The notes under the pieces are model-generated. The model ran no database searches and was not told the origin of the DNA. It saw nothing but the letters and a program-made list of their open reading frames with translations. 35,687 bases of DNA from an uncultured Chlorobiaceae bacterium (lineage in GTDB: Bacteria > Bacteroidota > Ignavibacteria > UBA10030 > SZUA-254), in contig CAYGZY010000060.1 in NCBI GenBank assembly GCA_964354485.1, positions 1-35,687 on the forward strand, given 5' to 3'. The position numbers and the translations under genes were made by a program. Position 1 is the stretch's first letter; each line of letters begins with the position of its first letter. Of the stretch, positions 1,817 to 31,141 are shown in pieces.

Positions 1817-2051
1817 ACTTTATTATGCAGAATGATGGGATATGATGGATATGATAAAAATATAAATCTTTTCGAATCGAGAATAACTTAAGATAGATAA
1901 TCGATAAACTGATAAATTTTGTAAGTTTAATTTCGTTCGCCGCGCGATTATGGTCTAATTATCTTTTCTAGATATTACTATTTGGTTTTTCAGCGGGAAG
2001 GTAGTAATTTATCACACTGTAATACATCGGGGTAGTATTGAAGGAGATTGA

Positions 2052-3326
2052 ATGCAAGATTTTTATAAGGAAATAGAGTGGAGAGGATTCGTTCACACGA
2101 GTACGCCGGGTGTTGACAAGCATTTACGTGCCGCGCCGGTCACAGCATATATCGGTTTCGACCCAACCGCTCCCAGTTTGCACGTTGGCTCACTCCTTCC
2201 AATCATGGGTCTCGTCCATTTCCAACGGTCGGGCCATTTACCGATAGCCGTATCCGGCGGAGGAACCGGTATGGTAGGAGATCCGAGCGGCAAGACGCAG
2301 GAGAGGAAACTTCTTCCGCTTGATGAGCTCAGATTTAATCTCGAAGGAATTCAGAAACAGCTTTCCCACTTCCTCGACTTTGAAATAAAATCAAATCCTG
2401 CGAAAATGGTCAACAACGCAGAATGGTTGACGACAGTTACACTCATGGATTTTTTACGGGAAATCGGAAAACATTTTTCCGTCAACGAAATGCTCGTGAA
2501 GGAGTCGGTAAAGAACCGTGTAGAACAGGAACAGGGTATGTCGTTTACGGAATTTACCTACTCTCTCCTCCAGTCGTACGATTACCTACAACTCTTCGAC
2601 CGCTACCACTGCACACTTCAGATGGGGGGGAGTGATCAATGGGGCAACATTACATCGGGAATTGACATCATCCGCCGACTGCGGAGTGCAGATGCTCACG
2701 CCATTGTATTCCCGCTCATTACAACGTCGGGCGGTGTTAAATTCGGAAAGACCGAGAGCGGGACAATCTGGCTGGATGCTGAGCGCACATCACCGTATCA
2801 ATTCTATCAGTTCTGGTTCAATACCGATGATCGGGATGCCGTCCAGTACCTGAAATACTTCACGCTATTGCCGCGGGAAACAATCGACGAGCTTGAACGT
2901 GCTGTTAAAACCAAACCTGAGAAGCGGGAAGCTCAGGTAGCACTCGCACGAGATGTGACTGGAAGACTCCATGGAGATACCGCGTTGGATCAGGCCGTGA
3001 AGGCATCTGCGATTTTCTTCGGCGGTGAAATTACGGAAGTGAGCGATAAAGAATTATTGGATATTTTCAGTGATGTTCCGTCGTGTGAACTGCGAAAAAG
3101 TATCTTTGATCCGGAAGGTTACCCCATTGTGGAGTTGCTCGTGACGTCAGGTGCGGCAAAATCGAAGGGTGAAGCTCGCCGGTTCATCCAGGGAGGAGGT
3201 ATTTACCTCAATAACCGACGGGTCGAAGAAGTGGAAAAGAAAATTGCACTCAAGGAAACAATTCATGGGAAATATCTTGTACTGAGACGGGGCGGACGTA
3301 ATTACTGGCTCGTGAAAATTCTATAA
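2052..3326 (+). CDS. tyrS: Tyrosine--tRNA ligase
   Basis: HIGH-type region PTAPSLHVGSLLP, KMSKS-type loop KFGKTESG, and a C-terminal S4 domain (KSKGEARRFIQGGGIYLNNRRV). AAGGAG at 2041-2046 lies 5 nt before the ATG. Confidence 0.95.
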   Translation: MQDFYKEIEWRGFVHTSTPGVDKHLRAAPVTAYIGFDPTAPSLHVGSLLPIMGLVHFQRSGHLPIAVSGGGTGMVGDPSGKTQERKLLPLDELRFNLEGIQKQLSHFLDFEIKSNPAKMVNNAEWLTTVTLMDFLREIGKHFSVNEMLVKESVKNRVEQEQGMSFTEFTYSLLQSYDYLQLFDRYHCTLQMGGSDQWGNITSGIDIIRRLRSADAHAIVFPLITTSGGVKFGKTESGTIWLDAERTSPYQFYQFWFNTDDRDAVQYLKYFTLLPRETIDELERAVKTKPEKREAQVALARDVTGRLHGDTALDQAVKASAIFFGGEITEVSDKELLDIFSDVPSCELRKSIFDPEGYPIVELLVTSGAAKSKGEARRFIQGGGIYLNNRRVEEVEKKIALKETIHGKYLVLRRGGRNYWLVKIL

Positions 3327-4597
3327 TGCAAGTTGCAGTACCTTACGGGTGTGGCCAGATCACACTGCAGGCCGACGAGCGAACAGCCGAATGGCACATG
3401 ATCAAAACTGAATCTTGTGAAGCATTAAAAGATCCCCGCCGCAATTTTACTGAAGCATGCCGCACTCCAATTGCATCCCCGCCTCTCCGTGATATCATAA
3501 AACCGACGGATCGCATTGTCGTTGTTACGTCCGACGGAACGCGTCCTTTTCCGAATGATATAATCATTCCCTGGCTCCTCGAAGAACTAAAGCTGGCCGA
3601 CGATAATATCACTATTCTGTTAGGTAATGGTACCCACAGAAAGAACACGCCTTCCGAAATTTTATCGATGTTTGGCGAGGAGATCGTACGACGCATTAAG
3701 ATCGTAAATCATGATTGTACCGAAGCGAATGACAATCGATTCCTTGGGATAACCGCGACAAACGGCAGAATATCGCTCAATCGGTTATACATCGAAGCCG
3801 ATAAGAGAATTGTGTTGGGATTTATCGAGCCTCATTTTTTTGCCGGCTTCTCCGGCGGCGCGAAGGGAATTGTACCGGCTGTAGCGGCTATGGAAACGAT
3901 TATGCACATTCACCGTACGGAGCTGATTGCAGATCCAAAAAGTACATGGGGTGAACTGGAACGGAACCCGATTCAGCATGAGATCAACGAAATGGTTTCC
4001 GCGTGTCCGCCTGATTTTCTGATAAATGTCACTCTCAATTCGGAAAGGAAGATAACGGGTTTTTACTGCGGCGATTACCGTAAGGCACATCTTCGCGGTT
4101 GTGCCGAAGTACTGAAACAATCCACGGTGACCGTAAATGATCGGTTTCCTCTCGTCATTACCTCGAACGGCGGTTATCCTCTTGATCAAAACCTTTATCA
4201 GACCGTCAAGGGTATCTCGGCCGCAGCCCGGATTGTGGAACCGGGTGGTACCATACTTGTCGCGAGTGAATGTCGGGATGGGATCCCGTCGAACGGACAG
4301 TTCGCCAACTTAATGTCGCAGGGATCAACACCGGTTGATATCCTTCGAAACGTCAATTCTTTGAAGGAACCTTCTATCGATCAATGGCAGGTGCAAATTC
4401 TCACAACAATTTTACAGCAAGCCGAAGTCAGACTCTTTTCATCGTTGGAGCCTGACGATGTACGCAGTTGCCATTTGCAACCGATAAGCAATCTGCAGGC
4501 TGAAATCGACAGGCTGATTCGTTCACATAGAAGGATGATGAAGGTGGTTGTCCTCCCCGATGGCCCGTATACTATTCCTTATGTGGAGGGGATGTAA
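3326..4597 (+). CDS. larA: LarA-family nickel-pincer-dependent 2-hydroxyacid racemase/epimerase (lactate racemase-like)
   Basis: LarA / DUF2088 signatures: VVVTSDGTRPFPN, LLGNGTHRKN, EPHFFAGFSGGAKGI and MHIHR. The ATG shares its A with the tyrS stop codon (TAATG at 3324-3328). Confidence 0.8.
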   Translation: MQVAVPYGCGQITLQADERTAEWHMIKTESCEALKDPRRNFTEACRTPIASPPLRDIIKPTDRIVVVTSDGTRPFPNDIIIPWLLEELKLADDNITILLGNGTHRKNTPSEILSMFGEEIVRRIKIVNHDCTEANDNRFLGITATNGRISLNRLYIEADKRIVLGFIEPHFFAGFSGGAKGIVPAVAAMETIMHIHRTELIADPKSTWGELERNPIQHEINEMVSACPPDFLINVTLNSERKITGFYCGDYRKAHLRGCAEVLKQSTVTVNDRFPLVITSNGGYPLDQNLYQTVKGISAAARIVEPGGTILVASECRDGIPSNGQFANLMSQGSTPVDILRNVNSLKEPSIDQWQVQILTTILQQAEVRLFSSLEPDDVRSCHLQPISNLQAEIDRLIRSHRRMMKVVVLPDGPYTIPYVEGM

Positions 4598-4630
4598 TGT
4601 TCCGTATCTACATCGTGATAAAGTGTGAGG

Positions 4631-5328
4631 TCTCGCTCCTATGGAGCTATACATCTTTTTAAACTTATGCTATAAACGTTTCGCTCCTGCGGAGCTCAAA
4701 CATTATAAGGGTTATTTTTTATTGTTCCGTTAGATACGAGATGTTTATAAATGTGGTGTCAGTCCCGTAGGCCTGCCCGCCAACCTAACTGATGGGCTGA
4801 TTGGCATGGACGACATGTTTATAAATTTGGAAGCAGTCCCGTAGGGACGACAGGTTTATAGATAAAAAAAAGAAGAATGCCAAGCTCCGTCAGGAGCGGA
4901 ACTATTATGAACCGAGATTATGATAAATAAAGGTAAACATTTTTTGTGCAAGATTTTGTGTCGCTCCTGCGGAGCTATCCGTTGGGTTATTCCTTTGTTA
5001 TAAACGTTTCGGGGCTGTCTAAAAAGTTCTTTCTGAACATTCGTGTCTTGGTGTCTTTGTGGTTATTGTTTTGAATTTGCATTATAATCAATGTTTTCAT
5101 TTACCACGAAGACTCCAAGAAATAGGAAGAATATTTACTTTTTAGTCAGCCCCTTGCATTGCATATGATCAGAGATTTTTAGTAGAATCCCGTAAGCTTC
5201 CCGCCTTCTTGAATGTGTGTACTGGTCGGCAAGAACGAGATTTTTATAAATCTGGAAGCAGCCCATAGGCTTACCCGCCTGCTCGAACGAGTGGGCTGGT
5301 TGGCGGGGATGAAATGTCTGTAGTGTAA
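4631..5328. repeat. Composite cluster of short interspersed hairpin repeats filling the larA-aroF spacer
   Basis: Family 1 is a GCTCC-N3/4-GGAGC hairpin module at 4635-4647, 4683-4695, 4963-4975 and, inverted, at 4884-4897. Two copies are preceded by TATAAACGTTTCG. Family 2 is an approximately 78-nt unit (GAGATKTTTATAAAT..GG..CAGYCCRTAGGC..CCCGCC....GGGCTGRTTGGC) at 4737-4814, 5171-5236 (diverged) and 5237-5313, with a truncated copy at 4815-4863. Units abut head-to-tail. The track shows no ORF of 60 aa or more except a spurious one overlapping the aroF start. Confidence 0.8.
5011..5153. repeat. 143-nt imperfect inverted repeat (two head-to-head copies of an approximately 60-nt unit)
   Basis: Left arm GGGGCTGTCTAAAAAGT...TCTTGGTGTCTTTGTGGT. 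The reverse complement of the right arm reads GGGGCTGACTAAAAAGT...TCTTGGAGTCTTCGTGGT. The outer 17 nt match 16/17 and the inner block of about 18 nt has 2 mismatches. Confidence 0.7.
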
Positions 5329-5399
5329 TTTCTCATCATTTTTTCTTATCTTTACCGTAATTCAATATTTATGATATTGCGTAACATAACTGAGTTTGT

Positions 5400-7908: not shown

Positions 7909-8583
7909 ATGACGACAGGTAAATCCTCTCTTCTCTACGTCGCGCAACCGCCGCAAATGGATCAGCATGGTAAAGCGCCCGCGCTCGTACTTCTCCACGG
8001 AAGAGGCGCCGATGAAAACGACCTGATGGGACTGGCTCAGTATTTTGATGAACGGTTGTTTATCATCAGTGTCAGAGCGCCGTATCCGTGGATGCACGGA
8101 CAGGGTTTCACGTGGTTTGATATTGAGGATATCGGGTCGCCGGACCCTGCAATGTTTGCCGAGAGCTATGCGAGGTTAATAAACTTTCTCCATGAAGCGC
8201 CGAAACTCTTTCCGATTGATCATGCCAGATTAAATCTCTGCGGTTTCAGTATGGGTGCGATGATGTCATACGTCGCCGCTCTCGCCGAACCTGAACTTGT
8301 AAACGGTGTTATGGCTCTAAGCGGTCTCATCCCTGAAAGTACCATAAAACCTGGTTACAACTGGGAAAAAGTTTTTAAAAAATCTTTTTTCATCGCACAT
8401 GGTGTCCATGATTCGGTAATTCCTGTTTCGTTCGGCCGGCGGGCAAAGGGACTGCTCACCGATGCCAAAGCTATCGTCACATACCGTGAATACGACATGG
8501 ATCATCAGATCAGTGAAGAGACGTTAAACGATATGACAAAGTGGGTAACAAATTTGCTAGACGGCAAAAGAATAATGAGCTAA
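7909..8583 (+). CDS. Alpha/beta hydrolase, phospholipase/carboxylesterase family
   Basis: LLHGRGADENDL, the nucleophile elbow GFSMGAMMS, and downstream HGVHDSVIP and YDMDHQI that fit a Ser-Asp-His triad. Confidence 0.75.
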   Translation: MTTGKSSLLYVAQPPQMDQHGKAPALVLLHGRGADENDLMGLAQYFDERLFIISVRAPYPWMHGQGFTWFDIEDIGSPDPAMFAESYARLINFLHEAPKLFPIDHARLNLCGFSMGAMMSYVAALAEPELVNGVMALSGLIPESTIKPGYNWEKVFKKSFFIAHGVHDSVIPVSFGRRAKGLLTDAKAIVTYREYDMDHQISEETLNDMTKWVTNLLDGKRIMS

Positions 8584-8779
8584 GAGCAAAGAGCAGAGAA
8601 AAGGAAATAGTGAGTAGTGATTGGTGAATATAGAAGGATTAATAATAATAGTAGTGTACGGTCGAAAGACTAATCACTAGTCGCCACTCGCTAACGAACG
8701 ATGACAAATGACTAATGACAAGTTACAAAGTCCCAAGTACAAAGTACCAATTACAAGTTACCAAGTACAAAGTACATCC
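8584..8779. repeat. Phase-locked heptanucleotide array (28 consecutive 7-mers) occupying the whole esterase-rhomboid spacer
   Basis: Read in 7-nt steps from 8584: gagcaaa gagcaga gaaaagg aaatagt gagtagt gattggt gaatata gaaggat taataat aatagta gtgtacg gtcgaaa gactaat cactagt cgccact cgctaac gaacgat gacaaat gactaat gacaagt tacaaag tcccaag tacaaag taccaat tacaagt taccaag tacaaag tacatcc. Most words differ from a neighbour at 1-3 positions, so the word drifts along the array. Confidence 0.75.
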
Positions 8780-20465: not shown

Positions 20466-22736
20466 ATGAAATTCCTGCGATTTCTGTCTCTCCTCTTTTT
20501 ATTATTTGTCCCGCTACTCCGCGCTCAGGAGAAAGTCACACTGCGAATCGTCGACTGGGCCGCCACCGAGGAAATGCCGCTTGATGAACTCGCAATCGAA
20601 GCGTTTGAAAAGGAATACCCATGGATCGATGTCCTTTATGAACCGAATCCGGGGAGGCAGTATGAAGAAAAAATTCTTACAGGTCTGGCTGCAGATTCAC
20701 CCCCGGACGTCTTTCTCCTTGATTCCAAACTGATTCCGACCTTCACAAACAAAAAAGTACTACTCGATCTCACGCCGTATATCCGGAAGCTCGGTATCGA
20801 CACGACTCAATGGTTCCCGAATGTCCTTGCAATAGCACGTCGGGGGAGCAGTCTCTATGCATTTCCCAAGGGTTTTACACCGTTAATGATGTATTACAAT
20901 AAAAGTCTCTTCAGGAGCGCCGGAATTCCGTATCCATCGCCGACGTGGGATTGGAATGAATATCTGAAAATCTCTCAGCAGTTGACTATAGATACCGACG
21001 GTGACGGGCATATGGATCAGTACGGTACAGCATTCACTAACTACTTCTTTCTCTGGATTCCCTGGGTGTGGTCAGCCGGAGGTGATGTAGTTGATCCGGA
21101 CGGAATGCTTTCGAATAATTACCTGAACTCGCCCGTAACAGAAAATGTTTTACGGTTTTTAATTGATTTACGGATAAAGCATAAAGTCGCTCCGGACGTA
21201 GGCACCTGGGTACAGGCGGAAAAAACCGGAACGAATCCATCTCTGTTCGCAAATGGTAAGATTGCCATGATTCTCGACGGGCACTGGCGTATGCCGAAGT
21301 ATGTGAAGTATGTGAACGAAGGAATTCTCGACATTGGAGTTGCTCCGCTCCCCGGATCCCCGTCGGGGAAAAAGGTAAATGTGATGTATGAATCCGGATG
21401 GTGCGTCCCCGTGAACGCGAAGCATTCGGAAGAAGCCGTCATCCTTGCAGCGTTTATGTCGGGCGAGACTGCGTGCCGTATCCGATCAGTCGGTCGGCTG
21501 GAAATTCCTGCCAACATGAAAGTTGCACAGGAAGCAGTTATGAATGATCCTACCGGTATGGAACAGGTGTTCCTCGATGAAGTGCCGTACTGCCGTCAAC
21601 CGTGGGGTTCCATCATCGAACGCTTCAGCGAGATCGAATGGACTATCCAGGATGCCGTCGATGAGGTCATGCTGAATTCAAAACCGATGCACGAAACGAT
21701 GACCTCATATGCAGGTCGAATCGACAAGGAGTTGAACCAGATACGGAGCCACCCACAGCTTGAGTTTAAACCTATAAAGGAACATACGGAAATTCTGTGG
21801 TTCCTTCTCGGAGTATCTGCCGCTGCAGCAGGGATATGTCTGGCTGCATACTTCCTTTCAAAATGGAAGGAACGCAGAACACTTGCGGTTTCACTGACAT
21901 TTATCTCACCGTCACTCATTCATCTGGTGGTGTTTGTATTCACTCCGATAATTTTTTCTGCATATCTCAGCCTTCATCGCTGGGATATCGTCGTACCTGA
22001 GAAACCATTTGTCGGACTCGGAAATTTTTCCGATATGGCGGGAGATTCAATGTTCTGGAACGCCCTGAAAAACACGCTGCTCTACTCGCTCAATGTGCCT
22101 TTCGGCATGGCGCTATCCCTCGTCGTCGCGCTCATGATGCACCGAAAGCTTAAGGGACTCAGTATTTTGAGGACGCTCTACTTCCTGCCGAGCGTGACAT
22201 CATTCGTGGCTATTGCACTTGTGTGGATGTGGATCTACCATCCGACGTTCGGCGCTGCCAATTTTTTCCTTAGTCTGGTTGGATTGCCTCCCCAGCAATG
22301 GTTGAATTCATCGGGGAGCGCCATGATTTCTATAATGATTTTTACTATATGGATGGGAATCGGATACCAGATGGTTATATTTCTGGCGGGTCTTCAGGGG
22401 ATTCCGGAGGAATTCTACGAAGCGGCTCGCATCGACGGAGCTTCGCGGTGGCAGAGATTCTGGTCAATCACACTGCCGCTGCTGAAACCGACTACATTTT
22501 TCATTCTTGTTACATCGTTCATAGCATCGTTCCAGGTTTTCACGACGGTCTATATCATGACTGCAGGCGGTCCTGTGAGGAGTACCGACGTGATTGTCTA
22601 TCATATCTACCAGTCGGCATGGGAACAACTGCGGATGGGCTACGCATCAGCAATGTCGTGGGTCCTCTTTCTGATCATCATGATCGCAACCTGGATCCAG
22701 TTTAAACTCATGGGCAAAGGTGTGGATTATACATGA
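20466..22736 (+). CDS. Fusion protein: family-1 extracellular solute-binding protein + linker TM + carbohydrate (CUT1-type, MalF/UgpA-like) ABC permease
   Basis: Signal peptide ending LLRA-QEK, then an SBP_bac_1-like domain of about 430 aa. An extra TM span ILWFLLGVSAAAAGICLAAYFL lies at nt 21792-21857. This is followed by a 6-TM permease with the EAA loop EAARIDGASRWQRFWSITLPLLKP. Confidence 0.8.
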   Translation: MKFLRFLSLLFLLFVPLLRAQEKVTLRIVDWAATEEMPLDELAIEAFEKEYPWIDVLYEPNPGRQYEEKILTGLAADSPPDVFLLDSKLIPTFTNKKVLLDLTPYIRKLGIDTTQWFPNVLAIARRGSSLYAFPKGFTPLMMYYNKSLFRSAGIPYPSPTWDWNEYLKISQQLTIDTDGDGHMDQYGTAFTNYFFLWIPWVWSAGGDVVDPDGMLSNNYLNSPVTENVLRFLIDLRIKHKVAPDVGTWVQAEKTGTNPSLFANGKIAMILDGHWRMPKYVKYVNEGILDIGVAPLPGSPSGKKVNVMYESGWCVPVNAKHSEEAVILAAFMSGETACRIRSVGRLEIPANMKVAQEAVMNDPTGMEQVFLDEVPYCRQPWGSIIERFSEIEWTIQDAVDEVMLNSKPMHETMTSYAGRIDKELNQIRSHPQLEFKPIKEHTEILWFLLGVSAAAAGICLAAYFLSKWKERRTLAVSLTFISPSLIHLVVFVFTPIIFSAYLSLHRWDIVVPEKPFVGLGNFSDMAGDSMFWNALKNTLLYSLNVPFGMALSLVVALMMHRKLKGLSILRTLYFLPSVTSFVAIALVWMWIYHPTFGAANFFLSLVGLPPQQWLNSSGSAMISIMIFTIWMGIGYQMVIFLAGLQGIPEEFYEAARIDGASRWQRFWSITLPLLKPTTFFILVTSFIASFQVFTTVYIMTAGGPVRSTDVIVYHIYQSAWEQLRMGYASAMSWVLFLIIMIATWIQFKLMGKGVDYT

Positions 22737-23596
22737 CAGGAGGTATTCGCATAACAGGTATGGGCAAACGGGGTGTGATGAAGGCCGGACTGCCGATCAT
22801 AATATCGATTGTGCTGTTTCTTCTTGCGTGTTCCATGCTTATCCCGTTTATATGGATGGTAAGCACGTCATTGATGAGCGAGCTCGAGGTCTATCAGTTC
22901 CCTCCAAAGTTTCTGCCGACGAGCTGGAGATGGTCAAATTTTATTGAAGCAATGACATTACAACCGTTCGGCCGATTTTTTCTGAATTCCGCCATCGTCG
23001 CCGCCGCTTCTGTAATCGGTCAGTTGATATTTTGTTCCATGGCAGCATATGCATTTGCCCGTCTGCCCTTCCGCGGCCGCGAGAAACTTTTTGCTTTGTA
23101 CCTCTCGACAATGATGATTCCCGCAATCGTCACGATTATTCCCGCATTCCTCATTATCAATGCATTCGGGTGGATGAATACCTACTGGGCGCTCTTTACG
23201 CCGACCCTTTCGAGTGTCTGGGGGATTTTTCTTTTACGGCAGTTTTTCCAGACTATCCCCAAGGATCTTGAAGATGCCGCACGTGTGGACGGCGCTTCTG
23301 AATTTACTATCTTCTGGAAAATCGTCATGCCGCTATCGAAACCGGCCCTCGCAACGCTCGCAATTTTTGCCTTCATGGGAAGCTGGAAGGATTTTCTCTG
23401 GCCCCTCATCGTAACCAACAGGAATGATATGAGAACCGTGGAAGTGGGGATTGCCAACTTCAGCTCGCTTTATACGACCGACTGGCCGCATCAGATGGCA
23501 GCCGCTGTGATCGTTATGTTGCCCATCATCGTGGTTTTTATATTTGCACAGAAGTATTTTGTACGCGGTATAACGCTCACCGGACTAAAGGGATAG
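22733..23596 (+). CDS. Carbohydrate ABC transporter permease (MalG/UgpE-like)
   Basis: EAA loop DAARVDGASEFTIFWKIVMPLSKPAL and six hydrophobic spans. ATGA overlap with the upstream fusion gene. Confidence 0.85.
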   Translation: MTGGIRITGMGKRGVMKAGLPIIISIVLFLLACSMLIPFIWMVSTSLMSELEVYQFPPKFLPTSWRWSNFIEAMTLQPFGRFFLNSAIVAAASVIGQLIFCSMAAYAFARLPFRGREKLFALYLSTMMIPAIVTIIPAFLIINAFGWMNTYWALFTPTLSSVWGIFLLRQFFQTIPKDLEDAARVDGASEFTIFWKIVMPLSKPALATLAIFAFMGSWKDFLWPLIVTNRNDMRTVEVGIANFSSLYTTDWPHQMAAAVIVMLPIIVVFIFAQKYFVRGITLTGLKG

Positions 23597-23759
23597 ATAC
23601 CGTTATCTACTGGGTTATGTAATTTTTCCAAGTGACCGTCAAAACAGCTTCCCATGTTATGTGAATGGTTGTACCCGGTATCTGGAATATCATCCCTTAA
23701 TTATGTAGATTAAAATTAGAAAAACGTCGAACTATAGGATCGGAAGGAGGATGTATAGC

Positions 23760-25853
23760 ATGATGAAGCGTGTGTTCTTACTGGTTGCCATTTTGATGTC
23801 TGTCCAGTCCTTGCTGGCGCAATATCAGAATATCCGCATCAGTAAAATTACAAGCACGACACCTGAAGAAGTTACCATCACTATTAATCCTGTGCACAAA
23901 AACAATCTCGCCGCAGGTGCAAATCTCAACTTTTCATACTACTCGTTGGATAGCGGTTATACATGGATAGAGCAAAAATTAACCTCAAGTGACTTCGGTG
24001 TTTGGGGGGATCCTTGTGTCGTCTTTGACGCGCAAGGAAATTTACATTTTGGCCACCTCTCTAATCCACCTTTATCCGGTTACTGGATCGATCGGATCGT
24101 AGTTCAGCGCTCCACAGACGGCGGTGCGACATGGAACAACGGTGTTGGCGTCGGATACAACCCACCGGATAAAAATCAGGACAAGGAGTGGATCGCAGTC
24201 GATTTGACCAACTCCTCATACCGTAACAATATCTACATGGCATGGACTGAATTCGACGATTATGGCAGCAGCCTGCCTTCGGACAGCACGAGAATTTTAT
24301 TTTCACGGTCGACAGACGCAGGACTAACGTGGGTGTCACCCGTACGTCTGAGCGATCAGGGTGGTAACTGTATCGATAGTGACAGTACCGTGGAAGGAGC
24401 GGTACCCGCCGTTGGGCCGAATGGTGAAGTGTATGTAAGCTGGTCGGGACCTTTGGGGATCGTATTCGATAAATCAACTGACGGGGGTGTAACATTCGGT
24501 CAGGATATTTTCGTTACCGACCATCCCGGTGGCTGGGATTTTAATATCCCGGGTATCTATCGGTGCAACGGAATGCCGGTTACCGCGTGCGACGCCGGCA
24601 ACTCGCCTTTTAGGGGAAACATTTACATCAATTGGTCGGATCAGAGATATGGAGAGAATAATACGGATATTTTTCTTATCAAGTCGACAGATGGCGGTAA
24701 CACGTGGGGATATGTAAAGCAGGTGAATGATGATCTATCCGGTCGGCATCAGTTTTTCACATGGATGACTGTCGATCAACTTAATGGATATTTATATATA
24801 GTATTTTACGATCGGCGAAATACTTTAGGTGATACGACTGATGTGTATGTCGCGCGGTCTGTGGATGGCGGGGATACATTTACAAATATTAAAGTAAACA
24901 CCGCATCATTTGTTCCCCAATCAAATGTCTTTTTCGGCGATTATACAAACATTGCAGCGCTCAACGGAAGAGTATATCCAATGTGGATGCGTATGGACGG
25001 CGGATCTTTAAGTGTATGGACAGCTATCATCGATGAGCGTCTTACACGTGAGATGTATGTTAATGAAGGATGGAATCTCATGTCGGTACCGATGTACCTC
25101 GAAGATTATGCGAATGAAATGGTGTTTCCATCAAAAGTCTCTGACGCATATCGGTACGACGGAACGTACCATGGTGTGGAGTCTAGTGGAAGAAATTTCG
25201 GATTTTGGATGAAGTTTGATGAAACCCAGACAGTTGATATAACGGGCGTCGATGTTTTCTTTGATTCAATCCGCTTGAATGCTGGATGGAATATAATAGG
25301 TTCGATAAGTACACCGGTTGCGGTGTCAACTATCGAGAGTGATCCGCCGGGCATGGTTTTATCGGAGTTTTTTACATACAGGGATAGCAGTTATTCGAGC
25401 GTCGATACTCTGTATCCATGGAATGGGTATTGGGTTAAATCCGACAGGGTGGGGAAGCTGGTCATCGGTGAAAATACGGTTGTATCGTCTGCAAATCGGA
25501 TTATTATTCGCTCCGACGGAGAATTGCCTCCACCGCCGCCTATCGACGCTGAGCAGGCAATCCCGCATCGATTTGTGCTTTATCAGAACTATCCAAACCC
25601 GTTTAATTCCACGACCAAGATGTCATTTGTCATTAGCTCGCCCGCCGGCTCTTTGGCGGGTAATTTATCATTTGTGACGTTGAAGATATATGATTTACTC
25701 GGGAGGGAAGTTGCGACACTCGTGAATAAAGTTTTGCACTCTGGTATTCACTTTGCTGAATGGGACGCGGGTAAATATCCAAGCGGTGTCTATTATTATC
25801 GTCTGAGCGCAGGAAGTTTCACCGATGTAAAGAAAATGGTGCTCATCAGATAA
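23760..25853 (+). CDS. BNR-repeat (sialidase / beta-propeller-like) secreted protein with a T9SS C-terminal sorting domain
   Basis: Five Asp-box repeats: STDGGATW, STDAGLTW, STDGGVTF, STDGGNTW and SVDGGDTF. Signal peptide ending LLAQ. C-terminal YQNYPNPFNSTTKMSF...VTLKIYDLLGREVATLVN...GVYYYRL...KKMVLIR. AGGAGG (23745-23750) favours the ATG at 23760 (9-nt spacing) over the track start at 23751. Confidence 0.8.
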   Translation: MMKRVFLLVAILMSVQSLLAQYQNIRISKITSTTPEEVTITINPVHKNNLAAGANLNFSYYSLDSGYTWIEQKLTSSDFGVWGDPCVVFDAQGNLHFGHLSNPPLSGYWIDRIVVQRSTDGGATWNNGVGVGYNPPDKNQDKEWIAVDLTNSSYRNNIYMAWTEFDDYGSSLPSDSTRILFSRSTDAGLTWVSPVRLSDQGGNCIDSDSTVEGAVPAVGPNGEVYVSWSGPLGIVFDKSTDGGVTFGQDIFVTDHPGGWDFNIPGIYRCNGMPVTACDAGNSPFRGNIYINWSDQRYGENNTDIFLIKSTDGGNTWGYVKQVNDDLSGRHQFFTWMTVDQLNGYLYIVFYDRRNTLGDTTDVYVARSVDGGDTFTNIKVNTASFVPQSNVFFGDYTNIAALNGRVYPMWMRMDGGSLSVWTAIIDERLTREMYVNEGWNLMSVPMYLEDYANEMVFPSKVSDAYRYDGTYHGVESSGRNFGFWMKFDETQTVDITGVDVFFDSIRLNAGWNIIGSISTPVAVSTIESDPPGMVLSEFFTYRDSSYSSVDTLYPWNGYWVKSDRVGKLVIGENTVVSSANRIIIRSDGELPPPPPIDAEQAIPHRFVLYQNYPNPFNSTTKMSFVISSPAGSLAGNLSFVTLKIYDLLGREVATLVNKVLHSGIHFAEWDAGKYPSGVYYYRLSAGSFTDVKKMVLIR

Positions 25854-25855
25854 CG

Positions 25856-26000
25856 AGCAGAGCTTGCAAACCTTGCGAAGGTTAACTCTGCTTAAGCTTC
25901 ACAGACCTTCGCAAGGTTCGCTAGACAACCAAAGCAAACTGAGTAAACCTTTCGAAGGATTGCTCTGCTTGAACATAACAAACCTTCGCAAGATTCGCTA
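25856..26000. repeat. Four copies of an ACCTTCGCAAGGT-type palindromic module
   Basis: Nested hairpin at 25856-25892: agcagag...aaccttgcgaaggtt...ctctgct. Further modules: accttcgcaaggt (25905-25917), ccttTCGaagg (25948-25958) and aaccttcgcaagattcgcta (25981-26000). Module starts at 25869, 25904, 25946 and 25981 are separated by 35, 42 and 35 nt, all multiples of 7. Confidence 0.7.
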
Positions 26001-26019
26001 AAATAATCAGGAGTTCAAG

Positions 26020-28584
26020 ATGATAAAAAATATTTTACTGGTTTTTATTTGTTTCTTCACAGTTTCTTTTGCGCAGATAAAGGTTAAAGAAACTACTATA
26101 CCATCGTTTGAAATTAAACAAAATGACCTCGAGCTTACACGCCTCGCTCAACCGTATCAATACTTCGATAAAATCGGTCCCAGAGCGGGATTGATGGGAT
26201 ACGAGAGCGGAACATTCGAGATGTGGGTATGGCCCTGGAAACCGCTGAGGAATTTTGAATTACAATTTCTTCTCGGCACTACTACTCAACCGATACTCGG
26301 GAAGGATATTGTCCGTACGATATCTGTCACGCCTGAAGTAACAACATTGACCTACACATACGAATCCTTCACGGTAAAAGAATATATCCTTATACCGAGA
26401 GATGAGCCGGGTGCCATTCTTCTTCTCGATGTTCATACCACAACCCCGCTCGCTATCATACCGGGATTTATTCCGGTGATGCAGCCGATGTGGCCTGCCG
26501 GCATAGGCGGACAATTCAGTTATTGGGAAGATGAGATGCATGGCTATGTGATATCCGAAGCCCAATGGCGTGCTGTAGTGTTCTGCGGTTCGCCGGCAGG
26601 GCAGCAGATGGCAGCGCCGCCCGCACACATGTTCGGCGATAATCCGCTACAGTTTAAAATAGAAGTGAAACCGGGTGAAACCGAAGGAAAGTTCATACCG
26701 ATCATCATCACGGGTGCGGTGCCGAATTCCACCGACTGGAAAATGAAGATGGACTCGGTGAAGGCGATTTATACAAGATTATGGCAGAACGCTGAAAAAT
26801 ATTATCGTGAGAACTATGATTATTACCGGAATCTTCGTAGCTCGACGATGCAGATTGAAACACCCGACAAGGAAATCAATCTTGCATACGAGTGGGGTAA
26901 AGTGGCGCTTGATAATTTAATGATCAAGAATCCCCGGCTCGGTTACGGCATGGTCGCAGGCATCGGACTTTCGGGCGGCGGCGCGCGCCCAGGTTTCGCA
27001 TGGTACTTCGGCGGCGATGCGTTCATCAATGTGCTTACACTGAACAGCGTCGGAATGTTTCAGCAAGCCAGAGATGCACTCGCATTCACCCAAAAGTGGC
27101 AGAGACAGGATAATTTTCCGATTCGCAAAAAGAATCCGGGCGATCCTCCAAGGGATGTAGGCAAGATGTCCCATGAGCTGTCGCAAAGCGACGGTATCTG
27201 TGATTGGTGGAACGATTATCATTACGGTTACAACCATGCCGACACATCGCCATGGTATCTCGTGGCAATGGGGGATTATGTGCGTACCAGTGGTGATGTG
27301 GAGTTTCTGAAACAGAACTGGAAATCGGTGAAGCAGGCTTACGAATGGTGCTTAAGTAAAGACAGCGACGGCGATGGATTGATGGATCTCAAGGGGGCGG
27401 GTCTGGGCGCGTTGGAGTTCGGCAAGCTCGTCGGCATCTACGCTGATCTGTATACCTGCGGCATATTTGTGCAGGGCATAAAAGAAATGAAATATATGGC
27501 GGAGTTAGTCGGTGATGATTCGACGGTAACTCAGGCAGATACACAGCTCAAAAAAGCACAACCACGATTGGAAGAATTATTCTGGTTAGAAAAAGAAGGT
27601 TACTATGCTTACGGCGCGACCGAGAAGGGCGAGCAGGTGCGTGAGAAAACTCCGTGGTCCGGTATTGCTATGATGTTTGGCTTATTGAGCGAAGAGCGGA
27701 CAGCGGAGAGCATAGAGAATTTTAATTCGGCGGATATGTGTACGGATTGGGGGATTCGGACACTTTCGAAGAAATCAGACCTATTCGATCCGACAAACTA
27801 CAACTACGGTGCGGTCTGGCCATTCATATCGTCGTTTTTTAACACGGCACAGTTTAAGCATAATTATGCATTACCGGGTTATCAGCTGCTTCGCTCAACA
27901 ATCAAACACGCGTTCGATCATGCGCTCGGAGTGGTGCCGGAAGTCTTTTCGGGCGAGTTGAATGAGAAACTTGGTGAAGGTTACCACCATCAGGGTTTCT
28001 CAACAACAGGATACCTGCTGCCTCTGGTGAGAGGATTGTTGGGATTGGAGAGAAACGCTCTGCTCAATCATCTCGATGTTAAGCCGGGCATACCTATGAC
28101 ATGGGATTCGGTGACGATAAGGAATTTAGTAATCGGATCACAGTCACACGATTTAGTAATTCATAATCACAGCAGCGGGAGCTCGCTAAGTATGTTGGAT
28201 AAAAATCCCACTGCGATTGATGTGAGCTTCCAGCCGATGTCAGTTGCAAATCGGGGATTAAATAGCTCCCGCCTGATAGCGCCTGAAAAAATCACGAAAG
28301 TAGATTATCCCCCCATTCCCGTGATCGAATTACCGGAACCTGATGGGAAAATAGGAATAACCAACAGCGGTCTAAGAATCGTTTCTTCACGACTTGAGGA
28401 AAAAAGAATTATTTACCTGGCCGAGGGTTTAGGAGGTAAAACATATCGGGCTATCCTGAAAAATCCGTATTTGGTGATGAAAGTTGAGGGAGCGAAAGTA
28501 GAAAAGGATGAGCTGATAATCTCATTCGAGAATACTTCCAAAACAGACTTTGCTCGGAAAGAGATAATCATTACATTCAAATAA
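26020..28584 (+). CDS. Secreted glycoside hydrolase-like protein, glycogen-debranching-enzyme C-terminal (GDE_C / amylo-alpha-1,6-glucosidase) type (alpha/alpha)6 barrel
   Basis: Signal peptide ending SFAQ. Motifs GFAWYFGGDAFI and HADTSPWYLVAMGDYVRTSGDVEFL resemble the YFGRD and DATLWF..A...Y...TGD motifs of GDE_C proteins. AGGAG lies upstream of the ATG. Confidence 0.55.
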   Translation: MIKNILLVFICFFTVSFAQIKVKETTIPSFEIKQNDLELTRLAQPYQYFDKIGPRAGLMGYESGTFEMWVWPWKPLRNFELQFLLGTTTQPILGKDIVRTISVTPEVTTLTYTYESFTVKEYILIPRDEPGAILLLDVHTTTPLAIIPGFIPVMQPMWPAGIGGQFSYWEDEMHGYVISEAQWRAVVFCGSPAGQQMAAPPAHMFGDNPLQFKIEVKPGETEGKFIPIIITGAVPNSTDWKMKMDSVKAIYTRLWQNAEKYYRENYDYYRNLRSSTMQIETPDKEINLAYEWGKVALDNLMIKNPRLGYGMVAGIGLSGGGARPGFAWYFGGDAFINVLTLNSVGMFQQARDALAFTQKWQRQDNFPIRKKNPGDPPRDVGKMSHELSQSDGICDWWNDYHYGYNHADTSPWYLVAMGDYVRTSGDVEFLKQNWKSVKQAYEWCLSKDSDGDGLMDLKGAGLGALEFGKLVGIYADLYTCGIFVQGIKEMKYMAELVGDDSTVTQADTQLKKAQPRLEELFWLEKEGYYAYGATEKGEQVREKTPWSGIAMMFGLLSEERTAESIENFNSADMCTDWGIRTLSKKSDLFDPTNYNYGAVWPFISSFFNTAQFKHNYALPGYQLLRSTIKHAFDHALGVVPEVFSGELNEKLGEGYHHQGFSTTGYLLPLVRGLLGLERNALLNHLDVKPGIPMTWDSVTIRNLVIGSQSHDLVIHNHSSGSSLSMLDKNPTAIDVSFQPMSVANRGLNSSRLIAPEKITKVDYPPIPVIELPEPDGKIGITNSGLRIVSSRLEEKRIIYLAEGLGGKTYRAILKNPYLVMKVEGAKVEKDELIISFENTSKTDFARKEIIITFK

Positions 28585-28688
28585 CTTCTACGCACTTTCT
28601 TCACCGCTCTGGTATATTGATTAATTTGTATCCAGGACAGCAAAGAAAAATAATTTGTGTAACATCAGAATAACCCTCACCCTGTAAC

Positions 28689-28712
28689 CCCTCTCCCGAT
28701 TTCGGGAGAGGG
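28689..28712 (+). promoter_or_regulatory. Perfect 11-bp hairpin (CCCTCTCCCGA-tt-TCGGGAGAGGG) just upstream of the hydrolase start
   Basis: 28689-28699 is the exact reverse complement of 28702-28712. The 3' arm contains the only purine-rich SD-like sequence (GGGAGAGGG) ahead of the ATG at 28724. No T-tract follows, so it is not a classical terminator. Confidence 0.4.
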
Positions 28713-28723
28713 TGGAACACGAA

Positions 28724-31141
28724 ATGAAAAAACTAAACATCCTCAAATACTTAGAACGAAAAGACAAATGGTACCTTGGCGGAGGCAACCGTCTCATCTG
28801 GACGCCGCCGTTTCCTGTCTGGCTTGATTATCCCGGTTTCTGGGATAAGGCGCATTACTACAACTACGAGATCGAACCGGTTTATACATGGACGATACTA
28901 GATGAGGATGGAGTAGAAATTCCTCTAAGAGGGGAGGAGAGAAAGTGGGATCCGTCGAAGCTTGTGATGGAGCTAAGAGCTGAGAGCATAGAGCAGAGAG
29001 CCGAGAGTAAGGCACAAAGAACAAAGTACAAACAACAAAGTACAAATAGCGATGAGCGGGGAGCGTTGAGTGTTGAGGAATCAAAATGCTGTTTGCCGAA
29101 CGATGTGCTGACATCGGTTATCAGCATTAAAAACAATTCTAAGAATTCAAGGAAGCTGCATCTCATTGCATGGACTGTCCAACCGAACTATCCTTCAAAA
29201 AAAACGTCCCGGTTATCGGATATTAATGTCGGGAGTAATCATATTCTCTTCAGAAAACATCTTCACAGAGATAACGCTCCAGTCCTACCTGTTGATTGTG
29301 TCTTTGGTATAAATCGAAAAATCAAATCGTATTCCGTCAACCTCAGCGAAGGATCTGCAATTCAACCGTACTGGCGATTGACTCCGTTTGCCGAAAAGTT
29401 CAGGAACGACAGATTACCAAATGAGAAAAAATTGTCGGGGATAAATAAGGATGGGTTGGTTTTTATGGCTTTGCATAGGAGCATAGAGCTTAGAGATGAG
29501 AGCAGAGAATCGGTGGCTGTCTTTTTTACTGCCGCACCTGGCAGAGCTGAGGCGAGTAAGAATTATTCTACCGCATCAAAATTAAAAGATCCCCTCAATA
29601 CAAGCGGGAAAAATTGGACCGATTACTTTGCGAGCTTGCCGTACTTCCGTTGTTCAGATGAATACCTTACTCGCTATTACTGGTACCGGTGGTACGGACT
29701 AAAATTGATGACCATGGACGGAAAAGAGGGGAACTACAAGTATCCGTCGGTGTGCGAAGGAATCGGATACTTCAGAGCGCCAATCTCCTACAGTGCCATG
29801 TGTCATATGCTCGAGAATCGATGGCGCCGTGATCCAAATCTCGCACAGGGAAGTCTTCTCACATTCATCGATAATCAGCGGAAGGATGGAGGTTTCCGCG
29901 GATACATCGATATGAACTATTACCGACAAGAAATGCTTGGGGTGAGCATAGTCGAACCCTTTTACCATGCAAATTGGGGGAATGCCGTTCGGGAGTTGTA
30001 TCGTATCCATCCTGATAAAGAATTCCTGAAGAAGGCATATAACGGATTGGTTAAGTATGTCCGTTATTTTGATCGTGAACGTGATCCGGAAAGGAGCGGA
30101 TTATACGACATCGATAACCATTACGAAACAGGGCAGGAGTACATGCATCGGTATCTTGCAGTTGATCCTGGCGCCGATAAAGATAATTGGGGAAGAGTGT
30201 TTCGATTGAAGGGTGTGGATGTCACTGTTTATATTTATGAGTTGAAGAAAACGCTGGCTTGGATGGCGGAGGTTCTAAAACGCAAAGGCCTGCCCGCCTA
30301 CGGTGCCCGCCATACCCGCTCGACCGATACGATCGGGCGAGCCGATGACGGGCTGGTTCAGGTGGGCGCAGAGATTGTAAAGTGGCGCAAAGAGGCGGAG
30401 AAAATAAAACAGGCGATCGTTGAAAAAATGTGGGATCCGAAAGAGGAAATGTTCTTTGACATTAATCCAAAAACAGGCAAGAGAACAAAAGTAAAAGCGG
30501 CAGTTTGTTTCTACCCTTATATGACGGACATCGTTTCAGAAAAACATTTACAAGGTTTGAAAAAGCATCTTCTCAATCCGGGAGAATTCCGGACAAAATA
30601 TCCCGTCCCGTCATCATCGGCGGATGATAAATATTTCTCTGCGGAATCCGAATGGAAAGGGAAAAGAATGAATTGTCCGTGGAACGGGCGCGTATGGCCC
30701 ATGACGAACAGTCATATGGCGGAAGTACTGGCGCAGTGTGCGATTAGATTTAAGAGCAAAGAGCTGAGAGCGATGAGCGGGGAGTTTATTTACAAGTATA
30801 TCAGGATGATGTTTTTTAATAACGATCCAGGACGTCCGAATTGCTTCGAGCACTACAATCCGATCTCAGGCGAACCCTCTGTCTATCGCGGAGTGGATGA
30901 TTACCAGCATTCGTGGATTGTGGATCTGCTCATTAAATACCTCGCAGGTGTCCGACCGGAAGAGAGACAAATTGTAGTAGATCCGTTTCCGTTTCAGGCG
31001 GATTACTTTACGCTCGATAACCTCTTTATCTGTGGGAGGAAGTTAAAAATTGTCAAGCGATCGCGAAGAGTCACAGTTTGGATCAACGGAAAGAAATACG
31101 GTACCTCAACTACGGGAAAATGCGTCGAGGTACCGCTGTGA
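28724..31141 (+). CDS. Cytoplasmic (alpha/alpha)6 glycoside hydrolase, GH63 / MGH1-like or GH37-like
   Basis: No signal peptide. Motifs DIDNHYETGQEY, FIDNQRKDGGFRGY and NCPWNGRVWPMTNSHMAEVL are typical of trehalase / mannosylglycerate-hydrolase-like six-hairpin enzymes. I prefer the ATG at 28724 to the track GTG at 28712, which lies inside the hairpin stem. Confidence 0.55.
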   Translation: MKKLNILKYLERKDKWYLGGGNRLIWTPPFPVWLDYPGFWDKAHYYNYEIEPVYTWTILDEDGVEIPLRGEERKWDPSKLVMELRAESIEQRAESKAQRTKYKQQSTNSDERGALSVEESKCCLPNDVLTSVISIKNNSKNSRKLHLIAWTVQPNYPSKKTSRLSDINVGSNHILFRKHLHRDNAPVLPVDCVFGINRKIKSYSVNLSEGSAIQPYWRLTPFAEKFRNDRLPNEKKLSGINKDGLVFMALHRSIELRDESRESVAVFFTAAPGRAEASKNYSTASKLKDPLNTSGKNWTDYFASLPYFRCSDEYLTRYYWYRWYGLKLMTMDGKEGNYKYPSVCEGIGYFRAPISYSAMCHMLENRWRRDPNLAQGSLLTFIDNQRKDGGFRGYIDMNYYRQEMLGVSIVEPFYHANWGNAVRELYRIHPDKEFLKKAYNGLVKYVRYFDRERDPERSGLYDIDNHYETGQEYMHRYLAVDPGADKDNWGRVFRLKGVDVTVYIYELKKTLAWMAEVLKRKGLPAYGARHTRSTDTIGRADDGLVQVGAEIVKWRKEAEKIKQAIVEKMWDPKEEMFFDINPKTGKRTKVKAAVCFYPYMTDIVSEKHLQGLKKHLLNPGEFRTKYPVPSSSADDKYFSAESEWKGKRMNCPWNGRVWPMTNSHMAEVLAQCAIRFKSKELRAMSGEFIYKYIRMMFFNNDPGRPNCFEHYNPISGEPSVYRGVDDYQHSWIVDLLIKYLAGVRPEERQIVVDPFPFQADYFTLDNLFICGRKLKIVKRSRRVTVWINGKKYGTSTTGKCVEVPL
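28970..29081. repeat. 16 phase-locked heptamers embedded in-frame in the hydrolase CDS
   Basis: gagctaa gagctga gagcata gagcaga gagccga gagtaag gcacaaa gaacaaa gtacaaa caacaaa gtacaaa tagcgat gagcggg gagcgtt gagtgtt gaggaat. This is translated as ELRAESIEQRAESKAQRTKYKQQSTNSDERGALSVEE. Confidence 0.7.
30286..30370. repeat. Copy of the CCCGCC/GGGCTGGTT intergenic repeat family embedded in-frame in the hydrolase CDS
   Basis: aggcctgcccgcc (30286-30298) is identical to 4769-4781 in the larA-aroF spacer. gggctggtt (30350-30358) is identical to 5293-5301. An internal hairpin gctcga-ccgat-acg-atcgg-gcgagc lies at about 30317-30343. Translated as GLPAYGARHTRSTDTIGRADDGLVQVGA. Confidence 0.6.
30754..30788. 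repeat. Five phase-locked heptamers embedded in-frame in the hydrolase CDS
   Basis: gagcaaa gagctga gagcgat gagcggg gagttta. taagagcaaagagc (30751-30764) is identical to 8581-8594. agcgatgagcggggag (30769-30784) is identical to 29048-29063. A further short run, gagcata gagctta gagatga gagcaga, lies at 29479-29506. Confidence 0.6.

Follow-up and report, generated by a model that had tools for sequence, protein, structure and literature searches.

How does a conserved enzyme come to contain, within its reading frame, DNA of kinds that are mostly found between genes? The question is raised by a gene for a predicted glycoside hydrolase (GH) in a 35,687-nucleotide (nt) stretch of DNA from an uncultured Chlorobiaceae bacterium (GTDB lineage Bacteroidota; Ignavibacteria; UBA10030; SZUA-254; NCBI assembly GCA_964354485.1, contig CAYGZY010000060.1). 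This 35.7-kb stretch, here called the window, was the portion of the genome examined, and all the sequences compared were metagenome-assembled. The gene occupies positions 28724–31141 of the + strand, and an original prediction, made from the DNA letters, had seen in it four in-frame insertions of intergenic repeat families: three runs of tandem heptamers (sites 1, 2 and 4) and one copy of a unit beginning CCCGCC (site 3). That reading is partly supported, being half right: it holds for sites 1 and 3, and fails for sites 2 and 4. We think it reasonably probable (about 0.65) that a functional GH63-like hydrolase took up non-coding repeat DNA at permissive loops, through slippage of an array and insertion of a module, and that segments of its folded core were altered by conversion.

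The enzyme and its orthologues

The open reading frame (ORF) encodes 805 amino acids (aa), and its product matches the Pfam family MGH1-like_GH (PF22422) at 1e-43, with a weak match to Trehalase. The hydrolase gene is intact, as had been claimed. An AlphaFold2 (AF2) model of the whole protein (predicted template modelling score, pTM, 0.81; mean predicted local distance difference test, pLDDT, 77) is confident outside the loops considered below, and has an N-terminal beta-sandwich and an (alpha/alpha)6 barrel. Foldseek matched the protein to the GH121 structure 6m5a (4e-25) and to the GH63 protein YgjK (1e-19). By profile and modelled fold, then, the product is a GH63-like (MGH1-like or trehalase-like) enzyme. 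Homologues were found to number 539 in metagenome-assembled genomes labelled as Ignavibacteria or Bacteroidota, most of them 744–750 aa long. A first protein alignment took in 27 of these, and a larger orthologue set (n = 82) was made up of genes from 80 species-representative genomes and two close relatives. Two sequences recur below: L002, which is 97% identical to and conspecific with the window, and L001, the nearest other species (86% aa identity).

A heptamer array in the turn of a beta-hairpin

In a scan of the whole window that scored a position as periodic when at least 23 of 35 nucleotides matched at a given lag, there were 127 periodic positions at lag 7 and 0–4 at each of the remaining lags between 1 and 12; the 127 merge into five segments, sites 1 and 4 among them, and the program TRF (Tandem Repeats Finder) reports period 7 at the arrays. 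The original counts of heptamers proved accurate, with 16 phase-locked units at 28970–29081, four at 29479–29506 and five at 30754–30788. When up to one mismatch was allowed, the pattern (GAGCNNN)2GAGC was matched 14 times (0.06 expected), every time on the + strand, the matches being located at 8577, at 27687 and at sites 1, 2 and 4. Site 1 can be described as follows.

28970..29081, + strand: site 1, an in-frame array of 16 heptamers (residues 83–119), consisting of (GAGCNNA)6, (NNACAAA)5-6 and (GAGYGNN)4
28988..29008, + strand: a block of 21 nt (three heptamers), present or absent among conspecific alleles, its placement ambiguous by repeat phase
29012..29053, + strand: a sub-block of 42 nt (six heptamers) of the NNACAAA type, absent from L001 and belonging to the unit family of the intergenic array at 8719–8777

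The array sits in the turn of a modelled beta-hairpin (strands 79–86 and 115–124), with pLDDT below 50 at residues 89–112. The corresponding region varies from 18 to 44 aa over the 82 orthologues, being 44 aa in the window, and distant orthologues have a tight turn of 2–4 residues at this position. Thus, the proposal that site 1 is a lineage-specific, in-frame addition in a loop of low confidence is upheld. A further eight orthologues, each from another species, reach the lag-7 threshold at an equivalent offset in the gene (+177 to +280; the gene of L008 is cut at its 5' end), and their units are diverse: GAGCNNA in L004, GATGTNN and CCGAAAT in L005, AGGTNNN in L007 and L008, TTCAAGA in L010, GGTTTGN and CTCAAAA in L011, and CGCAATC in L013. 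Loop-length classes are separated by steps of exactly 7 aa (42/28, 39/32 in two pairs, 30/23 and 29/22). In L001 exactly 42 nt (six heptamers) are missing, in phase, relative to the window, and within the species two 798-aa alleles (P0123/L203, from JGI 3300035659, and P0124/L204, from ENA ERZ27247688) are without exactly 21 nt of the GAGC sub-array. The window's array is free of stop codons in the sense frame that is used, and in that frame only. From these sequence comparisons, site 1 is best regarded as a hypervariable heptanucleotide microsatellite that would be translated as a disordered loop.

How might such an array originate? The array units of L007 and L008 can be seen to derive from native flanking codons, with AGGTTTGAGG on both strands of the hairpin, and the whole of the L004 loop is in phase with its native flanks; this points to a birth in situ rather than to insertion. 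As to its later evolution, the window and L002 differ by six substitutions within the 63 codons inserted at sites 1 and 3, all of them non-synonymous (elsewhere there are 24 non-synonymous and 20 synonymous changes in 720 codons), and the inserted peptides would seem to evolve as neutral passengers.

A unit length that is no multiple of 3, in an array situated in the gene's 5' third and polymorphic in copy number within the species, might bring to mind a contingency locus, with slippage by one or two heptamers frameshifting the glycosidase OFF and its reversal turning it ON; cycles of +1/–1 slippage could also homogenise the units. However, every complete allele or orthologue recovered from the sub-clade is in frame (three of 805 aa, two of 798 aa and one orthologue of 765 aa), the length differences seen are of 21 and 42 nt only, and the loop phenomenon is conserved across many free-living species. 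The window's units are also imperfect, with few identical neighbours, because of which slippage is expected to be slow. With imperfect units, in-frame alleles and differences in multiples of 21 nt, site 1 does not have the character of a phase-variable repeat, and we consider this explanation very improbable.

Arrays of related units are present in two intergenic regions of the window.

8577..8599, + strand: intergenic GAGCNNA array, the first unit of which holds the stop codon of gene 7909–8583
8701..8777, + strand: intergenic ATGACAA and AGTACAA heptamer arrays, of a unit family shared with the 42-nt sub-block of site 1

Both that sub-block and the part of the second region at 8719–8777 show TACAAAG/ACAAAGA consensus units. 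Many related loci likewise have intergenic heptamer arrays, and arrays of many unrelated units coexist. A metagenome scan for (GAGCNNN)4GAGC, too heterogeneous in its yield for a coding-versus-non-coding statistic, revealed that such arrays are common, in contigs with GC contents of 0.36–0.72, mostly without long ORFs on the array's strand. It had been supposed that, outside the hydrolase gene, the families in the window were strictly non-coding. This is incorrect, as the stop codon of 7909–8583 falls inside the 8577 array and a GAGC-phased patch (27687–27717) lies within the neighbouring glycosidase gene. The four exact strings that had been cited as linking the hydrolase gene to the intergenic repeats are all present at their positions, but matches of 13 or 14 nt cannot serve as lone proof of common origin: the window contains 37 repeated pairs of 13-mers (13 in simulations) and 15 of 14-mers (4 in simulations), and no single such match is significant alone. 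Repeated 16-mers are significant (two pairs, with 0.07 expected).

In four orthologues (L005, L009, L011 and L081) the DNA of the site-1 loop is an inverted pair of heptamer arrays with a strong predicted hairpin (z = –2.8 to –3.9), so that a DNA palindrome coincides with a protein beta-hairpin. No hairpin was found in the window's own site-1 array, which is one-armed and unstructured (z = –0.8). In L081 (gene 1697–4030) the (CCGAAAT)n array is broken by a 21-nt hairpin, CCCGCCTGCCGGACGGGCAGG, read in frame as RPACRTG and absent from the related array of L005. Long hairpins in which a heptamer array precedes its reverse complement, such as (GGTCATG)n ... (CATGACC)n, occur between genes in L058 (5379–5512) and L076 (1846–1937), which come from distant genomes (Rhodothermales and Chloroflexi), and the inverted-array architecture is therefore widespread.

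A palindromic module between two helices

The second loop, at site 3, has a different kind of repeat, with relatives in a single intergenic region of the window (in the junctions given below, the stroke marks the point of insertion).

30289..30366, + strand: site 3, an imperfect palindrome of 78 nt, in frame and encoding 26 aa (residues 522–547), between helices 498–517 and 549–569
4772..4808, + strand: intergenic CCCGCC...GGGCTGRTT copy (37 nt), nested in a GTCCCGTAGG/GACGAC hairpin module
5270..5306, + strand: intergenic CCCGCC...GGGCTGGTT copy (37 nt) with a CCCGCC–GGCGGG stem (z = –1.9), nested in a module of the GTCCCGTAGG/GACGAC type
5197..5233, + strand: third intergenic copy of the CCCGCC unit (37 nt), more diverged, nested in a host module
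4836..4851, + strand: 'empty' paralogue of the host module, GTCCCGTAGG/GACGAC, without a CCCGCC unit and marking the insertion junction

The insert is confined to the window and its conspecifics (L002, L203, L204 and P0122), and is absent from L001 and 79 other orthologues; in terms of the protein, the region is 41 aa long in the window and its 97% relative only, and 13–15 aa in 80 orthologues. In the AF2 model, pLDDT drops below 50 at exactly residues 522–547, with a confident helix on either side, and the peptide is predicted to form a surface loop away from the core. The claim that site 3 carries the CCCGCC unit as a lineage-specific loop insert is thus borne out. The insert is predicted to fold into a long, imperfect hairpin with a minimum free energy of –44.5 kcal/mol (shuffled sequences –36.6 +/- 3.4 kcal/mol; z = –2.3), and 4 of 200 shuffles fold as well. 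Its architecture and 5' junction are those of the three intergenic copies; it opens with AGG/CCTGCCCGCC, as does the copy at 4772, and GGGCTGGTT occurs inside it, as in the copy at 5270. The pattern CCCGCC-N8-38-GGGCTGRTT has three matches in the window (4776, 5274 and 30306), with none expected, and the intergenic copies make up, with 4836–4851, a filled/empty pair with a sharp junction. A possible target-site duplication at site 3 was considered and rejected: the CGCARAG repeats are spaced by 86 nt, whereas the insert has 78. No further copies of the module, or of the other intergenic modules, were found outside the window and L002, in pattern and blastn-short searches of about 200 other loci (about 165 distinct sequences). 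Site 3 is, on this comparative evidence, a clean and recent in-frame insertion of a small palindromic element; the status of the CCCGCC modules as a family, and their mobility, are supported but thinly so.

The intergenic region that contains these copies (4598–5399) is an 800-nt stretch crowded with small modules. These include four GCTCC-N3-4-GGAGC hairpins and three TTTATAAAT...CCCGTAGG units, two of them with a nested CCCGCC unit, as is also the case at an extra CCCGTAAG site at 5190. An element of about 143 nt at 5011–5153, with 17-nt inverted termini (GGGGCTGTCTAAAAAGT and ACTTTTTAGTCAGCCCC), has the look of a miniature inverted-repeat transposable element.

Are the inserts real?

Repeats are prone to misassembly, and the data are all from metagenome assemblies. 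Nevertheless, four independent assemblies (one from NCBI, two from ENA and one from JGI) keep the frame open over 798–805 aa and have arrays that are alike, bar a clean 21-nt indel. L002, L203 and L204, which are independent conspecific assemblies, all contain both the site-1 array and the 78-nt insert at site 3, and the fragment P0122 also bears the latter. Because the segments recur in this way, artefacts are disfavoured. Nor does the gene have the appearance of a decaying pseudogene, the ratio of non-synonymous to synonymous substitution rates outside the inserts being roughly 0.4 (a rough estimate from the substitution counts between the window and L002) and the AF2 model being confident beyond the loops. 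Misassembly, or decay of the gene, is in our judgement scarcely credible. Translation might be shown through any of three predicted peptides: AESIEQR, TKYKQQSTNSDER and STDTIGR.

Array-like codons in the folded core

Two further sites in the gene, and a patch in the gene next to it, have heptamer phasing in a different setting.

29479..29506, + strand: site 2, four GAGCNNA-phased heptamers (residues 252–261), in a beta-hairpin, with no indel
30754..30788, + strand: site 4, five GAGC-phased heptamers at the start of helix 679–694, with no indel
27687..27717, + strand: GAGC-phased patch in the GH116/MGH1-like gene (26020–28584), encoding the conserved SEERTAESIE, with no indel

Site 2 is 15 aa long in 81 of the 82 orthologues and site 4 is 17 aa long in 73 of them. 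At site 4, L681 and E687 do not vary among the 27 aligned sequences, and at site 2 the AF2 model has strands 244–256 and 261–271 with pLDDT of about 90. Given constant length, conserved residues and a position in the folded core, sites 2 and 4 are therefore not insertions, and the original prediction, which had staked its reading on an absence of conserved residues here, has to be abandoned for both. The encoded peptides had also been thought to be low-complexity loops; those of sites 1 and 3 are modelled as loops (pLDDT <50), and those of sites 2 and 4 as a folded beta-hairpin and a helix, respectively. The neighbouring patch, considered as another possible insertion, was likewise dismissed, as it aligns to orthologues without an indel.

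It is at the level of DNA that these segments stand out. With the protein sequence fixed and codons drawn from the window's own usage, site 2 would have at least one (GAGCNNN)3 match with a probability of 0.016, site 4 with one of 0.126 and the neighbouring patch with one of 0.006. The matches observed total 13, with 0.48 expected, and the joint probability of the three patches, given the proteins and the window's codon usage, is about 1e-5. The Arg residue of ELR is encoded by AGA in all the orthologues with the heptamer form (6/6 at each site), AGA gene-wide accounting for 0.08–0.29 of Arg codons, and at site 4 the four non-heptamer orthologues with Arg in this position use CGN. In distant pairs of orthologues, codons for identical residues are themselves identical at a frequency of 0.45 over the gene and about 0.9 at site 2; when averaged in sliding windows of nine codons (624 windows), this synonymous conservation is highest at a mini-module described below (0.69), followed by site 2 (0.68) and the 5' flank of site 1 (0.61). 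A 16-mer, AGCGATGAGCGGGGAG, is common to sites 1 and 4 in the lineage of the window only (L002 shares a 12-mer), and amounts at site 4 to five clustered changes relative to L001. Across species, two non-homologous sites agree at about 27 of 30 nt. The codons are thus far more heptamer-like than the protein requires, and the earlier suggestion of a common DNA origin for sites 2 and 4 is still favoured. The excess suggests that short patches were converted, or that selection acts on the nucleotides themselves.

It may be asked whether the resemblance is simply accidental, with peptides of the ExRAxSE type happening to be encoded by common codons and only sites 1 and 3 being repeat DNA. Sites 2 and 4 and the neighbouring patch do lack indels, their residues are conserved and structurally ordinary, the neighbouring patch barely reaches the lag-7 threshold, and at site 4 a match has a 13% probability given the protein. 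Chance nevertheless sits poorly with the joint probability of about 1e-5, with the invariable use of AGA at both sites, with the rank of site 2 above the 99th percentile of synonymous conservation, with the close agreement of non-homologous sites across species, and with the lineage-specific 16-mer that is held in common with site 1. We think it an improbable explanation.

The GAGC patches are nearly confined to the closest clade, where they lie within about 2 kb on either side of site 1 and all on the coding strand; of 82 sequences scanned (the window and 81 loci), 68 have no GAGC-phased patch. Could the (GAGCNNN)n tracts, then, be sense-strand cis-elements (in mRNA or single-stranded DNA) of a two-glycosidase operon, read by a protein in a 7-nt register and kept by nucleotide selection, the coding sequence having adapted around them? 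HutP recognises NAG-N4 repeats. All the GAGC matches are on the coding strand, at four sites in two adjacent genes; the codon choice deviates from expectation; and the synonymous conservation of site 2 (0.68, vs 0.45 for the gene) extends to species that share only about 60% identity and whose site-1 arrays are unrelated. CspB has been reported on heptamer repeats (PMC4679880). On the other hand, other orthologues differ in their site-1 units and do without the site-4 form, with the gene apparently retained, and the site-1 copy number varies within a species. Moreover, no candidate binding protein was visible among the window proteins scanned, there is no Rfam match in the window, and intergenic arrays of many unrelated units coexist. 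On balance, such cis-elements seem to us rather unlikely.

The 8-mer GAGCATAG occurs on the + strand at 27708, 28984, 29479 and 29947 (in the neighbouring patch, site 1, site 2 and the mini-module, respectively), with an estimated expectation of about 0.5 occurrences per strand, and three of the four occurrences extend as GAGCATAGAG.

A fifth site and the 5' untranslated region

The peak of synonymous conservation in the gene is at a site that the original prediction did not include, and another small element precedes the gene.

29936..29959, + strand: fifth site, a 24-nt in-frame mini-module, CTTGGGGTGAGCATAGTCGAACCC, encoding LGVSIVEP (residues 405–412), between the conserved RQEM and FYH
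28689..28712, + strand: hairpin CCCTCTCC..GGGAGAGGG in the 5' untranslated region, just upstream of the start codon of the glycosidase gene

The model has pLDDT below 50 at residues 395–413. The region of the mini-module is 8 aa long in 72 orthologues, 16 in six, 12 in two and 20 in one, a patchiness that could reflect either precise and repeated loss or repeated insertion at one site. In L005, 12 extra nucleotides within the mini-module complete a nested CCCGCCAACGGCGGG hairpin. In its 5' untranslated region, the window is without a 41-nt block that is present in L001, L002, L203 and L204 (L002, 1010–1059; L001, 3632–3681). The block is made up of a 32-nt hairpin, GTGCTCCGTCCCGATTCATCGGGATCGGAGCG, and a second copy of the 9-nt direct repeat GGGAGAGGG, and the difference looks as if a small hairpin module flanked by direct repeats had been precisely lost or excised.

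The gene belongs to a sugar-utilisation cluster (20466–31141) which also has genes for a fused solute-binding/permease component of an ATP-binding cassette transporter, a second permease, a BNR-repeat protein with a type IX secretion system (T9SS) sorting tail, and the GH116/MGH1-like enzyme; the two glycosidase genes adjoin each other at many orthologous loci. Between the gene for the BNR-repeat protein with the T9SS tail and the GH116-like gene (25860–26005) are two direct copies of a 56-nt sequence, 82% identical, each with the palindrome AACCTTGCGAAGGTT and without a match in other loci. The window has no Rfam families or tRNAs, and no transposase or RAYT domain was found among the 22 window proteins scanned.

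How the repeat DNA may have entered and spread

We suppose that a heptamer array was seeded in the beta-hairpin turn early in the Ignavibacteria-like clade, and that it has since evolved by replication slippage or unequal exchange in a 7-nt register. As 7 is not divisible by 3, only steps of 21 nt (three units), or multiples of this, would survive selection, and only stop-free unit variants would persist. The outcome would be a fast-changing, disordered and roughly neutral loop of 10–37 aa, the units of which turn over between species. At site 3, a 78-nt module resembling REP, SDR and RPE elements (see below) in behaviour would have entered an inter-helix loop recently and in frame, from a family that nests in other intergenic hairpins of the genome. 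Sites 2 and 4 and the neighbouring patch would be native core sequence of conserved length, with DNA that has been pulled towards the GAGCNNA array while the fold stayed unchanged, most probably through short tracts of gene conversion, or through switching of templates, with arrays close by.

Several observations weigh against parts of this account. The evidence of neutrality consists of just six substitutions. The inverted-array hairpins of L005, L009, L011 and L081 are not predicted by pure slippage. The CCCGCC family is small (three or four copies of 37–78 nt, all in the window), and given so few copies, and no transposase among the window proteins, its mobility is deduced from one filled/empty comparison. 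The synonymous conservation of site 2 persists in L007 and L009, where the site-1 array is not of the GAGC type, and for this reason nucleotide selection is an easier explanation there than conversion from site 1, although donors elsewhere in the genome may also have been responsible. Finally, the restriction of GAGC patches to the sense strand, and their concentration in two adjacent glycosidase genes, could hint at a function at the RNA level.

It is tempting to go further and suggest that arrays 'heptamerise' nearby coding DNA, whether as donors for short-patch conversion or through a 7-nt recognition code on the sense strand. This idea is tentative, and we are more inclined to doubt it than to accept it; if it were true, arrays would, in the long run of evolution, shape adjacent genes in their synonymous and some of their non-synonymous sequence.

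The origin and dynamics of heptamer repeats, and the reason for a 7-nt unit, are still unexplained (PMC4679880, PMC4692102). An array within a conserved enzyme offers three things that are missing from intergenic arrays: a frame that can be aligned across dozens of species, a selective filter and a structural readout. The locus displays turnover of units at one loop, a 21-nt quantum of change within a species and nested micro-insertions, together with a possible spread of array sequence into neighbouring codons. With it, 'selfish DNA in proteins', inserted in frame and best known in Rickettsia, would have an example in a lineage that is free-living and Ignavibacteria-like, with modules of far smaller size. 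The locus is also a caution for those who annotate metagenomic enzymes or predict their structures. If the inserts are no more than tolerated passengers, they are a tidy example and bring no new principle. Of most interest are the conserved array slot, with its turnover of units and 21-nt polymorphism, and the array-like codons in segments of the folded core.

Comparison with known repeat systems

Heptanucleotide repeats are reported to be the most abundant class of long simple sequence repeats (SSRs) in many bacterial genomes, and are mostly intergenic (PMC4679880, PMC4692102). Slippage of the polymerase, with a contact length of 7 nt, has been put forward as their cause (Mrazek 2007, via PMC4679880; PMC4692102), and examples are the STRR sequences of cyanobacteria and the GGGNATC arrays of Xanthomonas and Nostoc (PMC4679880, PMC4692102). 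TAACTGA repeats are found in Beggiatoaceae, Cyanobacteria and a few Bacteroidetes, sometimes within ORFs as a 7-aa repeat (PMC4679880). The arrays described here are similar in consisting of head-to-tail 7-nt units, of several types per genome and mainly intergenic, which often abut stop or start codons, vary in copy number between strains and occasionally enter ORFs. With its tandem 7-nt units, dispersed intergenic counterparts and changes of whole units in copy number, site 1 is a heptamer SSR by the usual marks of the class. It differs from the named examples in its units (GAGCNNA and NNACAAA, rather than STRR, TAACTGA or GGGNATC) and in being from an Ignavibacteria-like lineage; in its position inside a conserved and annotated enzyme, rather than in a hypothetical protein or at a gene terminus; in the occupation of one protein loop in many species by differing units; and in that the 21-nt quantum can be seen directly.

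A close parallel is the P6b element of the group I intron in the Nostoc tRNA-Leu(UAA) gene, a hypervariable stem-loop of heptamer repeats (PMC4476775). There, too, a functional gene has a fixed, permissive slot in which repeat classes are replaced between lineages and side insertions occur, and complementary repeat classes form hairpins, as they do in L005, L009, L011 and L081. Unlike the hydrolase, the host of P6b is a structured RNA without a reading-frame filter, and the window's array has only one arm (z = –0.8).

The best-known palindromic elements of the in-frame kind are the Rickettsia palindromic elements (RPEs; Ogata et al. 2000), and intragenic ERIC and BOX elements are a further instance (PMC10969869); in that review RPEs are given as about 100–150 bp long, with tens of copies and a conserved peptide, in an obligate intracellular alphaproteobacterium. 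Resemblance to RPEs had been suggested for all four sites of the hydrolase gene. It is apt for the behaviour of site 3, a palindrome that is in frame in an unrelated metabolic gene, is predicted to be translated and occupies a position that the fold tolerates. It is not apt for site 1, a microsatellite probably driven by slippage and not an inserted palindrome. Even for site 3 the likeness is one of behaviour, and none would be expected in sequence; the insert is of 78 nt, and only three or four copies of 37–78 nt were seen.

Another comparison is with the small dispersed repeats (SDRs) of Nostoc punctiforme, which Elhai and colleagues reportedly described in 2008 (Genome Res 18:1484) and which later papers take up (PMC4390886, PMC3116915). 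They are said to be very small hairpin modules of tens of nucleotides, nested in other repeats at precise junctions. Nesting of this sort is seen here in the 37-nt unit within GTCCCGTAGG/GACGAC, the 21-nt hairpin within the L081 array and the 12 nt within the L005 mini-module. The phylum and the sequences are different, and the modules of this locus are only putatively mobile.

Lastly, the REP and REPIN elements associated with RAYT transposases are short, GC-rich, imperfect intergenic palindromes (PMC3116915, PMC3733652). The window's modules are also short, GC-rich and imperfect palindromes, clustered between genes, and the GTCCCGTAGG/GACGAC host module holds GTAG. They differ in that the site-3 copy is intragenic (REPs being extragenic by definition), that there is no RAYT gene in the window and that a doublet is not evident. 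None of the features of sequence identity that mark the named families is found in the repeats of this locus, which would thus appear to be known kinds of repeat in a new lineage.

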